In this document: positions 28,627-30,259 of the stretch, piece after piece | Numbering within the stretch: position 1 is the stretch's first letter | Layout: each line of letters starts with the position of its first letter | Virus genome (UHGV): UHGV-0135480 | Source of the DNA: a virus | DNA length: 41,448 nt | Strand: one strand, 5' to 3' | Notes under the pieces: generated by a model | What the model was told of the DNA's origin: nothing | Database searches by the model: none | What the model saw: only the letters and a program-made list of their open reading frames with translations | Made by a program: the position numbers and the translations under genes

Positions 28627-28681
28627 ACTATACCAAACCTAACCCCACCTAACCCTACCACACCAGACCTAACCTAACCTT
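28627..28681. repeat. pentanucleotide-periodic tract A1, (ACCNN)x11 on + strand
   Basis: ACC at 28632, 28637 ... 28677 with exact 5-nt spacing (ACCAA ACCTA ACCCC ACCTA ACCCT ACCAC ACCAG ACCTA ACCTA ACCTT). Confidence 0.85.
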
Positions 28682-28682
28682 G

Positions 28683-28751
28683 TTAAAAGACCCTCTTAAA
28701 GACCTTTTAAAAAGGTAAGTCTCATTTTAATGTAGCTGAGACTAACTACCC
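28683..28751. repeat. conserved 69-bp module, copy 1: 33-bp box plus 7-bp-stem hairpin
   Basis: Box ttaaaagaccctcttaaagaccttttaaaaagg (28683-28715), hairpin agtctca-12 nt-tgagact (28718-28743), then aactaccc. Identical to 30094-30162. Confidence 0.85.
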
Positions 28752-28753
28752 AT

Positions 28754-28813
28754 ACCAGACCCTACCTTACCAAACCAGACCTCACCCTACCCCACCATAC
28801 CGTATACTACCTC
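28754..28813. repeat. pentanucleotide-periodic tract A2, (ACCNN)x12
   Basis: ACC at 28754 + 5k for k = 0-11, with one degenerate unit (ATA at 28804). Confidence 0.85.
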
Positions 28814-28814
28814 A

Positions 28815-28863
28815 TTAAAAGACCCTCTTAAAGACCTTTTAAAAAGGAGCCTCCGAAGAGGCT
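28815..28863 (-). terminator. 33-bp box copy 2 plus GC hairpin with UUCG-type loop: intrinsic terminator for the - strand gene ending at 28875
   Basis: On the - strand, hairpin agcctc-ttcg-gaggct (28863..28848) is followed by CC TTTTT from the box complement. Box 28815-28847 is identical to copies 1 and 3. Confidence 0.55.
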
Positions 28864-28874
28864 ACCTAGTCAAC

Positions 28875-29315
28875 TTAGAAAGGTTTTCTGCGTTGCTTGT
28901 TAATGTTAGCTTTCATAGCAGCTAAGTGGTTTTGCTGTTCAATTAGTCGTGAACGTTCTTGGTGGCTAAGTGCCATAGTGTTCACATTCTCAATTGCTTG
29001 AGTAGCTTGCTTTAAAGCACGACCAATTTTACCAGACATTTTACGTTTTGCAATAGTTGCTTGATGCTTAGGTTCAACCACACGATAACCAACACCCATT
29101 GAAGCAACCAGATAAATCTTCTCTTCTTTAAGAAGCTTCTCAATAAACTTCTCAAGTCGGTTTAGACGTGTAAGCGCATAAGCCTTCATTTCATCTTCGT
29201 ACTTAACAATGTCACCTTGATAAGTTGGCTTCACAATACCTAAGAAGGTGTCCATCTCAGAGTGTGATACAGTGTCACCGTAACTAAACTTTGCTGCTAA
29301 TGCTTTTGTATTCAT
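28875..29315 (-). CDS. hypothetical protein (146 aa), cassette gene 2
   Basis: ATG at 29315, stop at 28875 followed by the hairpin/U-tract; basic helical C-terminus. No motif recognised. Confidence 0.5.
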   Translation of the reverse strand: MNTKALAAKFSYGDTVSHSEMDTFLGIVKPTYQGDIVKYEDEMKAYALTRLNRLEKFIEKLLKEEKIYLVASMGVGYRVVEPKHQATIAKRKMSGKIGRALKQATQAIENVNTMALSHQERSRLIEQQNHLAAMKANINKQRRKPF

Positions 29316-29317
29316 AA

Positions 29318-29905
29318 TTAAACGCTACCTTCTGAAATAACTTCTACAGAAAAACGACCAAAGCGTGGACGCCAATCACCTACACCGCAAAGGTTACCAG
29401 CATTTTCCAGAACCATCAAGAGTTCCTCTTTGGTGATTTGCTCTTCATCGAACATCAAACCAAACTCTACAGACCAATCACGGAAGATTGGACGGTAGCT
29501 CATAACTCGTGCTGTACCAATCTTAACAGATTTAGCATAGATAAAATCTGGATTCTTAGCAAGTTCTTGTGGGTTTGCTGGACAGTTCTTGATAGTCATT
29601 GGGAAGACTACATCTGTCAGCATAATGGCTCGGTCAATTACCTTACCAAGTTTGTTGAGCTTTGCACCAGACTTGATACAAGCCTCAATCATCTCACCGT
29701 TCATAACAAAACCAAGTTGCTCATCGTAGTAACAAGAAGTTACCAGTTGACTTTCTGCTAAGAGCGCATAGTCTTCGTCAGTCTTTTTACGTTTACTGGA
29801 CAGAGACTTGTGATATTTTGTCAGAGGGTTTAATGGGTCTGACAGCGTATCGTTATGGCTCAGGAAAGGACGAGTACCAGTGATTTTGATATTTAACAGT
29901 TTCAT
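29318..29905 (-). CDS. hypothetical protein (about 195 aa), cassette gene 1
   Basis: ORF-track start 29920 is GTG; ATG at 29905 has GGAG 9 nt upstream. Two-nt gap to the downstream gene implies co-transcription. No motif. Confidence 0.5.
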
Positions 29906-30017
29906 AGCATTTAGCTCCACACTTTAGTTGATTGTTAAGTTGTTTGTAAAGAACCCTCAACAGAAGACTCTTTAGAAACTTGGTAGATTTTTAACGTGGC
30001 TACTACCATCCACCCAT

Positions 30018-30092
30018 ACCATACCGAACCTTACCTTACCAAACCAGACCGCGCCTTACCAAACCAGACCAAACATTACTTTACCCTACCTT
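30018..30092. repeat. pentanucleotide-periodic tract B1, (ACCNN)x15
   Basis: ACC (occasionally GCC/ACA/ACT) at 30018 + 5k for k = 0-14; contains the 17-nt subrepeat ccttaccaaaccagacc also present in tract A2. Confidence 0.85.
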
Positions 30093-30093
30093 A

Positions 30094-30162
30094 TTAAAAG
30101 ACCCTCTTAAAGACCTTTTAAAAAGGTAAGTCTCATTTTAATGTAGCTGAGACTAACTACCC
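30094..30162. repeat. conserved 69-bp module, copy 2 (identical to 28683-28751)
   Basis: Box 30094-30126 and hairpin agtctca...tgagact 30129-30154 plus aactaccc; on the - strand the hairpin is followed by TACC TTTTT, so it may act as a terminator or attenuator. Confidence 0.85.
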
Positions 30163-30169
30163 GCACTTT

Positions 30170-30259
30170 ACCGCACCGGACCTTACCGGACCGCACATCA
30201 CCGCACTAAACCAGACATCACATTACCTGACCACACCAAACCAAACATCACATTACTTA
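30170..30259. repeat. pentanucleotide-periodic tract B2, (ACYNN/ACANN)x18
   Basis: AC at 30170 + 5k for k = 0-17 (ACCGC ACCGG ACCTT ACCGG ACCGC ACATC ACCGC ACTAA ACCAG ACATC ACATT ACCTG ACCAC ACCAA ACCAA ACATC ACATT ACTTA). Confidence 0.85.

Follow-up and report, generated by a model that had tools for sequence, protein, structure and literature searches.

Four pentamer-periodic tracts in a Felix O1-like phage genome are the probable guide regions of a type II VIPR locus

What purpose do four tracts serve in which nearly the same three bases recur every five nucleotides, in phage DNA that is otherwise free of such sequence? The tracts lie in the virus genome UHGV-0135480, a stretch of 41,448 nucleotides that was analysed at its full length and is called the window here. 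Very probably, each tract supplies the variable region of a vrRNA gene; two such genes stand on either side of the gene pair vipr and vap1, and together they make up a complete locus of type II VIPR (Viral Interference Programmable Repeat) belonging to the SUSP1 clade. Judged by its sequence, the window is from a Felix O1-like phage (Felixounavirus): over positions 28500-30360 it shares 98% identity with Escherichia virus TH10, and more than 100 further Felixounavirus records match there at 91-96%. Felix O1-like phages are a group used for typing and biocontrol. Public annotations of the region hold only "DR_4" repeats, predicted terminators and promoters, or unnamed repeat regions, and the Felix O1 genome paper (PMC3185647) gives other direct repeats, these tracts being absent from it. 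A scan of positions 28300-30500 against Rfam returned only chance small-nucleolar-RNA-like matches below threshold. The system and its clade were already described in two preprints of 2026.

The preliminary description of the window, which was made from the letters alone, reported four tracts with a 5-nt period and about 56 units; we count 57 units in the register of the minus strand, and its coordinates are right to within a few bases. The Fourier analysis that it proposed as a check was run, and the strongest period-5 power of the whole window lies in tracts 1 and 3 (maximum 7.0; median 0.62; 99th percentile 2.2). With one mismatch or none, the motif ACCNNACCNNACCNNACC occurs 34 times, where shuffles lead one to expect 0.07; every match is on the plus strand and inside the four reported tracts, which are unique in the window. 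Read on the minus strand, which is the gene strand, the tracts are (GGYNN)n, where Y is a pyrimidine and N any base, with 11, 12, 15 and 19 units. The tracts are thus real and striking, yet already explained.

The gene to which such tracts are linked was identified by a pattern scan of IMG/VR for (GGTNN)6GGT, made without prior knowledge of the system, which returned at least 120 loci. Some of these are plain microsatellites, and about half have a tract with variable NN positions, often in tandem arrays of up to 18 modules; this count and those that follow in this paragraph apply to the matches listed. Tandem arrays have a fixed module end, as in contigs L017, L027 and L105. In all 64 loci with variable NN positions, every tract of a locus is on one strand. 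An all-against-all BLASTP comparison of the open reading frames (ORFs) within 3 kb placed a single ORF family near the tracts in 43 of the 64 loci, and on the strand of the tracts in 42 of these 43. The window member of the family is the 200-aa ORF between the two pairs of tracts, which matches ORFs in 38 other loci. Loci in which the family protein is only 37-40% identical are also flanked by tracts. Several unrelated contigs (L017, L027, L105, L024 and L016) carry 7 to 18 tandem modules with other ends, namely GGTAAGGCTA, GGAATGGTTTAATGAATTTAAT and GGGCAG|TTRY, the last form being arranged back-to-back or overlapping. These large arrays probably represent other VIPR types and the "staggered" arrays of the preprint. 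A tract-flanked ORF in L024 was considered as a homologue of the window 146-aa protein and rejected (BLASTP E = 2.7).

A sequence search of the PDB matched the tract-linked ORF to entry 36pp, "SUSP1 Vipr protein" (chain 36pp_D), with E = 3e-127. The mechanically called start of the ORF is GTG 29920, which gives 200 aa; in the solved SUSP1 protein, the start corresponds to ATG 29905, and a GGAG ribosome-binding site precedes that ATG. Counted from ATG 29905, the window Vipr is identical to 36pp at 190 of 195 positions (97%), the differences being at residues 18, 119, 189, 190 and 194. The contact residues named in the cryo-electron microscopy preprint are all kept (H17, K33, R39, E71, M72, K82, K88, R138, C173, D177, W178 and R179). 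Since the identity exceeds the 90% to the SUSP1 protein that the preprint uses as its own clade criterion, the window Vipr falls into a clade that has already been described. The vap1 ORF directly downstream is 99% identical to the gene that follows vipr in phiSUSP1, and the role of Vap1 as a VIPR accessory protein is taken from bioRxiv 10.64898/2026.04.26.720920. Vap1 has neither a Pfam nor a PDB match, the vipr ORF has no Pfam domain, and both ORFs belong to PHROG families of unknown function.

VIPR is a phage-borne system of RNA-guided DNA silencing (bioRxiv 10.64898/2026.04.26.720920, 10.64898/2026.04.26.720927). Its parts are Vipr, which is a minimal RAMP-fold protein, the accessory protein Vap, and vrRNAs composed of 9-16 YNNGG repeats and an invariant tail; GGY is conserved, NN is hypervariable, and in the SUSP1 clade the tail forms a pseudoknot (bioRxiv 10.64898/2026.04.26.720920). 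Small-RNA sequencing of SUSP1-infected Escherichia coli detected four vrRNAs of ~100 nt, one encoded upstream and three downstream, which co-purified with Vipr, and the same preprint reported the skip rule of target recognition and transcriptional silencing, with the native SUSP1 guides repressing a reporter (bioRxiv 10.64898/2026.04.26.720920). Structures of the filament and of the triplex placed one Vipr protomer on each repeat, with both guanines, in syn conformation, and the pyrimidine held in protein pockets (bioRxiv 10.64898/2026.04.26.720927). Targeting does not require a protospacer-adjacent motif (PAM); 18 of 20 SUSP1-clade guides with identifiable targets match a satellite phage in E. 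coli genomes, the skipped bases fall mostly at codon wobble positions, and some satellites have vrRNAs of their own, according to the VIPR preprints.

We infer that the mechanism described in the preprints for the 97%-identical SUSP1 system also operates in the window phage. Each tract would be transcribed into an RNA of ~90-140 nt, and one Vipr protomer would occupy each repeat, flipping the GGY bases into protein pockets and leaving the two N bases exposed. The concatenated NN dinucleotides would then pair with double-stranded DNA of the form (xNN)n, so that one base is skipped per unit, and the resulting R-loop triplex would block transcription. The guides would be aimed at competing mobile elements. 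The preliminary description had suggested an array of binding sites for a nucleic-acid-binding protein; the array survives as one Vipr protomer per pentamer, as reported in the cryo-electron microscopy preprint, but the molecule bound would be the RNA transcript rather than DNA, and the purpose would be the display of a guide.

The conservation of the tracts agrees with what is expected of such guides. We compared 105 modules with 72 distinct guides from 27 loci of Ounavirinae (GenBank records and 18 IMG/VR contigs found via the Vipr protein). In the unit, G occupies position 1 in 79% of cases and T or A in the rest; position 2 is nearly always G (97%), and position 3 is mostly T (89%) with some C (10%); the information content of positions 1-3 is 1.06, 1.76 and 1.42 bits, that of positions 4-5 only 0.08 and 0.11 bits. 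The earlier reading of the minus strand as (NNGGT)n therefore holds as a periodic motif but not as a strict GGT, the constant core being G2 and Y3 of a GGY-NN unit. The length from the box, a conserved sequence 5' of each tract, to the tail has a residue modulo 5 that is fixed by the type of box in 71 of the 72 guides, and the guides therefore differ by whole units. The comparison across phages that had been proposed from the outset thus gave the anticipated result: GGY is kept, the NN positions are hypervariable, and the lengths change in steps of 5.

Every tract is followed by a conserved 3' tail. The 23 distinct tails align without gaps and share an H-type pseudoknot with stem S1 in columns 3-6/17-20 and stem S2 in columns 8-15/28-35. 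The pseudoknot was drawn from the same sequences that were used to test the pairing, in which 90.2% of the cells are paired (100% in helix 1) as compared to 25-44% in slid controls. Nine of the 12 tail pairs are changed on both sides, for example AAGG/CCTT, GTGG/CCAC and GTAG/CTAC in one stem, and AGTCTCA/TGAGACT versus AATCGGA/TCCGATT. All four window tails keep a perfect pseudoknot. The presence of a pseudoknot with compensatory changes after every tract shows selection on the transcript. The tracts, described earlier as intergenic, do lie between ORFs; however, they themselves belong to small-RNA genes.

On the minus strand, the order of the locus is promoter, vrRNA, vrRNA, vipr, vap1, vrRNA, vrRNA, and the four vrRNAs are called vr4, vr3, vr2 and vr1 in this order (Table 1). 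Each module consists of the box, the periodic tract and a fixed 35-nt 3' element; in two modules, TACC and a T run come after this element. The locus of phiSUSP1, when parsed in the same way, has one upstream and three downstream modules, which agrees with the small-RNA sequencing of the preprint and thereby validates the module boundaries.

Table 1. Features assigned to the VIPR locus of the window, in order along the minus strand.
Feature	Position	Strand	Details
Head sigma-70-type promoter-like site	30320..30347	-	TTGACA-16-TATACT (11/12); just past DNA ligase stop codon
Box of first vrRNA (vr4)	30260..30285	-	Variant CTTAAGAGTCTTCTAAGAGGGTTTTTA, directly 5' of vr4; core 30263-30277
vr4 variable region	30163..30257	-	19 GGYNN units, 5' units degenerate (AGT/TGT)
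vr4 3' tail	30120..30162	-	Pseudoknot GGGTAG..CTAC / AGTCTCA..TGAGACT (30128-30162), then TACC + T run
Box of second vrRNA (vr3)	30093..30119	-	AAAAGGTCTTTAAGAGGGTCTTTTAATAA, 5' of vr3; core 30101-30114
vr3 variable region	30016..30090	-	15 GGYNN units
vr3 3' tail	29981..30015	-	Pseudoknot GTGG..CCAC / TGGTAG..CTACCA
Fifth box copy	29945..29975	-	GAGTCTTCTGTTGAGGGTTCTTTACA, 40-70 nt upstream of vipr start codon; core 29953-29968
vipr	29318..29905	-	195 aa, ATG 29905; RAMP-like protein polymerising on vrRNA; phrog_4652
vap1 (VIPR accessory protein)	28875..29315	-	146 aa; phrog_5926
Terminator-like hairpin	28848..28863	-	AGCCTCTTCGGAGGCT + T run, after vap1
Box of third vrRNA (vr2)	28814..28847	-	5' of vr2; core 28822-28835
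vr2 variable region	28752..28811	-	12 units
vr2 3' tail	28709..28751	-	Pseudoknot and T run as in vr4
Box of fourth vrRNA (vr1)	28682..28708	-	5' of vr1; core 28690-28703
vr1 variable region	28625..28679	-	11 units
vr1 3' tail	28590..28624	-	Pseudoknot AAGG..CCTT / TGGCAG..CTGCCA
19-nt inverted repeat	28544..28590	-	With T run; overlaps TTGACA-17-TATTTT promoter-like site of next gene

Felix O1, SUSP1, Moogle, Shy and wV8 all share the promoter-like site that heads the locus, a candidate promoter of vr4. The T run behind the vr4 tail looks like an intrinsic terminator, and the record of phage ASO1B annotates a terminator at the equivalent place. The box reads AAAAGGTCTTTAAGAGGGTCTTTTAAyrA or CACTTAAGAGTCTTCTAAGAGGGTTTTTA, and three of the copies have an identical 30-nt core. 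Its core, GTCTT-N3-7-AGGGT, comprises two direct half-sites ~11-12 nt apart and occurs five times in the 41-kb window as opposed to 0.37 times expected. None lies outside the VIPR locus, where every vrRNA has a copy in front of it and the fifth precedes vipr. The box may serve as a promoter specific to the phage, as a signal for processing or as an operator, possibly for Vap1. The 19-nt inverted repeat probably marks the end of the locus. Downstream of it lies a 127-aa ORF (28115-28498, minus strand; phrog_4332, a family of unknown function) with a signal-peptide-like N-terminus, the promoter-like site of which is located inside the inverted repeat, and one small ORF further there is a 109-aa Cro/CI-type helix-turn-helix protein (27610-27939, minus strand).

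The probable targets of the guides are in E. coli. The window segment 13784-15532, containing the 3' part of the tape-measure gene and the baseplate gene, has 87-93% identity to chromosomal sequence in 377 of 5,426 complete E. coli genomes (megablast). The matched elements are ~11-12 kb long, inserted in mdtG or in a DUF72 gene, bounded by serine recombinase genes, and carry tape-measure and baseplate genes like those of the phage. These features fit the satellite described in the preprint, which presumably borrows the virions of Felix O1-like phages. Four of these elements (L129, L130, L131 and L132) were scanned with the NN strings of the four window guides. Three of these guides match the E. 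coli satellite when read by the published 1-nt-skip code. Guide vr2 matches 21 of 24 NN positions (87.5%) at 15498-15533 of L130, where the EC12 satellite has no annotation; with skips of 0, 2 or 3 bases, or in the flanking chromosome, no more than 16 of 24 positions agree, and none of 200 order-shuffled guides reaches 21. In the tape-measure gene, the twelve 3' units of vr4 agree with two satellites at 20 of 24 positions and with a third at 18 of 24; the coordinates place the skipped bases at codon position 3. For vr3, two satellites show an unbroken stretch of eight perfect units at one and the same intergenic site. Perfect runs reach 8, 8 and 9 units at a skip of 1, no more than 6 at other skips, and no more than 6-7 in 100 shuffled orders. 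Within the 41-kb window, the best skip-1 matches of the guides (16/22, 17/24, 20/30 and 24/38) are all below 80% and at background level, giving no sign of self-targeting.

The mismatches of the three guide-target pairs are concentrated in the 5' units and in the final one or two units on the tail side, each pair having a perfect central-to-3' block of 8-9 units. This block may represent a seed-like region, or the sampled satellites may simply have diverged. The vr2 target in the EC12 satellite is followed by an adjoining box-like sequence, AAGTCTCTTAAGAGTCTGTTAAG (L130 ~15540).

Several points weigh against the assignment of the tracts as guides of a working VIPR system. The expression of the vrRNAs, their co-purification with Vipr, and silencing are expected in this phage by analogy, from its near-identity to SUSP1, and the mechanism itself relies on two preprints of a single laboratory, for which peer review is still outstanding. 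The target matches are partial, covering 83-88% over 12 units, and 70% over 15 units for vr3, and come from four sampled satellite variants; the preprint threshold of at least 80% over the whole guide is reached by vr2 only. The 19 units of vr4 exceed the 9-16 reported, and its first 7-9 units have a degenerate GGY (AGT/TGT) and do not match the target; only the 3' part of vr4 may be functional. Guide vr1 has no target above background in the four satellites, IMG/VR, the GTDB representative genomes or the JGI metagenomes. The exact whole-guide (xNN)n patterns of vr1 and vr2 have no match in IMG/VR. A 9-unit core of vr1 has seven matches in GTDB genomes and nine in metagenomes, which are in unrelated taxa and in no case extend to the full guide, and are therefore consistent with chance.

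One alternative is that the locus is a true VIPR locus in which some or all of the four vrRNAs are decaying, non-functional or without a current target, and are kept only by hitch-hiking or recombination. It would account for vr1, for the degenerate and unmatched 5' half of vr4, and for phage Felix O1, which keeps a single, more degenerate module and no vipr or vap. We nevertheless regard it as improbable, given that Vipr and Vap1 are both intact and almost the same as the SUSP1 proteins, whose activity has been shown by experiment, that none of the four tails has lost its pseudoknot, and that the matches of three guides are far above the controls.

The remaining explanations treat the repeats as something other than guides, and each fares much worse than decay of the vrRNAs. 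The tracts might act as double- or single-stranded DNA, as sites for a DNA-binding protein, as primase sites, or as a replication origin of the R-loop type in which the non-template strand is G-rich (cf. T4 oriF/oriG and ColE1). Their position among the replication genes for ligase and DNA polymerase, the strongly G-rich minus strand downstream of promoter-like sites, and the occurrence of GGTC, the T7 primase core, in some units are in favour of such a role. However, the positions that would be informative for a primase, N4 and N5, are the hypervariable ones (~0.1 bit) and contain no primase motif, so that the primase sites put forward in the preliminary description are not supported. Other phages have up to 18 tandem modules, which is more than any origin needs, and an RNA pseudoknot with compensatory changes is conserved after every tract. 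The tight linkage to Vipr explains the periodicity, and the solved Vipr complexes bind the repeats as RNA. A function as a DNA element is thus very improbable.

The same low standing is given to the proposal, likewise made from the raw sequence, that the GG-N3 repeats form tandem two-tetrad G-quadruplexes with a structural or regulatory role in minus-strand RNA or DNA. The sequence GGTNNGGTNNGGTNNGG fits the formal two-tetrad pattern, but about one fifth of the units (21%) lack the first G (TGT/AGT), including long runs of units in vr4; position 3 is constrained to a pyrimidine, which a quadruplex loop does not require; and in the published structures both guanines are syn and buried in protein pockets. 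Least tenable of all, with a probability close to nil, is the idea that the C/A-rich, G-poor plus strand of the tracts yields a transcript with a Rho-utilisation site that ends antisense transcription: there is no promoter-like site on the plus strand facing the tracts, the confinement of tracts to one strand in 64 of 64 loci, with the Vipr-family ORF on it in 42 of 43, and a tail structure that exists only in the minus-strand transcript all point to the opposite strand, and natural Rho-utilisation sites are not known to be strictly periodic.

Other candidates were dropped once Vipr had been identified: small GU-rich sponge RNAs, a TRAP-like ring protein (TRAP is the trp RNA-binding attenuation protein), boxA/boxC-like antitermination signals, a sponge for tRNA CCA ends, repeat RNA of a type III toxin-antitoxin system, a recombination hot spot or Chi-like function, and R-loop pentamers like those of immunoglobulin switch regions. 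The tRNA sponge had been considered with regard to GGU, the CCA-binding motif of RNase P RNA and T-box leaders.

Related phages have one to three modules per intergenic region. The sharing of guides between phages is all-or-none, with 12/12, 15/15 or 18/18 identical units or at most 3, the one partial exception being 12/18. The NN string of vr4 is identical in phage ASO1B, that of vr3 in five other loci, and that of vr2 in three loci, including wV8 and Shy. Guide vr1 has no counterpart in the 27 related loci, with at most 1 of its 11 units shared. This pattern resembles the sharing of spacers among arrays of CRISPR (clustered regularly interspaced short palindromic repeats).

Copies of vrRNA genes without vipr were found in two settings. 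Felix O1 (L004, AF320576.1, 2910-3191) has a single module of 11-13 rather degenerate units, in which the upstream flank of the first module is joined to the tail of the last, and neither vipr nor vap1 was found at this locus. This orphan hybrid vrRNA suggests that recombination between modules adds or removes the cassette; the module itself is either a guide left on its own or what remained after a deletion through inter-module recombination. The EC12 satellite (L130, NZ_CP070229.1, 15003-15100, minus strand) has its own vrRNA of ~11 units, with a pseudoknot tail of the GTGG/CCAC type, as in vr3, behind a sigma-70-like site TTGACG-16-TATAAT. Its tail and adjoining repeat region are 90.6% identical to window positions 29982-30045. 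Neither vipr nor vap was found in the four satellites, and a BLAST search of E. coli genomes with a 79-nt tail-plus-box query gave no match. We speculate, with considerable doubt, that the vrRNA modules are recombination substrates through which the vipr-vap1 cassette is inserted, deleted and shuffled, that guide-only copies are freeloaders or decoys dependent on Vipr supplied in trans, and that the box is a promoter or operator, perhaps for Vap1, which sets the timing of the guides. If they are freeloaders or decoys, the guide-only copies of Felix O1 and the EC12 satellite would use or titrate Vipr from a co-infecting phage.

VIPR is a recently reported class of RNA-guided DNA recognition with a gapped code, in which two of every five guide bases pair with two of every three target bases. 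The window provides a complete and apparently intact example from a Felix O1-like phage. The linkage of the tracts to Vipr, the GGY/NN pattern, the tail pseudoknot, the 1-nt-skip rule and the targeting of satellites were reproduced here from sequence alone. The additions are modest and absent from the main text of the preprints: the box, the 19-unit guide, the orphan vrRNA of Felix O1 and the all-or-none sharing of guides. The first reading of the raw letters picked out a truly exceptional element, which is now explained and is no new discovery.

The periodicity has a precedent in TRAP, an oligomer that reads a (G/U)AG triplet every 5 nt of RNA, separated by two non-conserved spacer bases. The 5-nt sequence periodicity is of the same kind in VIPR. 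However, TRAP is a closed 11-mer ring bound to 11 repeats of a regulatory leader, its spacer bases carry no information, it does not target DNA, and its fold is unrelated. The window tracts have the triplet GGY instead of NAG and number 11 to 19 units, and the scanned neighbouring proteins contain no TrpBP domain (PF02081).

There is also a similarity to class 1 CRISPR-Cas systems, in which Cas7 assembles on the CRISPR RNA, as in Cascade. According to the preprints, both have a RAMP-fold filament on a guide RNA with a fixed number of nucleotides per protomer, a thumb that flips bases at regular intervals, and an R-loop on DNA. The period is 5 nt in VIPR, with three bases sequestered and two read, whereas it is 6 nt in class 1 CRISPR-Cas, with one base flipped and five read. 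In contrast to CRISPR-Cas, the VIPR target is gapped (xNN), type II VIPR has no repeat-spacer array, cas1/cas2, PAM or nuclease, and it is phages that encode the system and turn it against other mobile elements. The window locus has no CRISPR-type direct repeats, no Rfam match and no cas-family Pfam domain on the neighbouring ORFs, and a single RAMP-like gene. VIPR has been proposed to predate CRISPR.

The closest known system is the type II VIPR of SUSP1 (PDB 36pp). The window phage is a Felixounavirus rather than a Suspvirus, its vrRNAs are arranged two upstream and two downstream in place of one and three, and all four of its guide sequences differ from those of SUSP1. The two loci have in common the location between DNA ligase and the signal-peptide ORF, the GGY/NN repeats, the three variants of the tail pseudoknot, the boxes and the head promoter, and their guides match the same kind of E. 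coli satellite.

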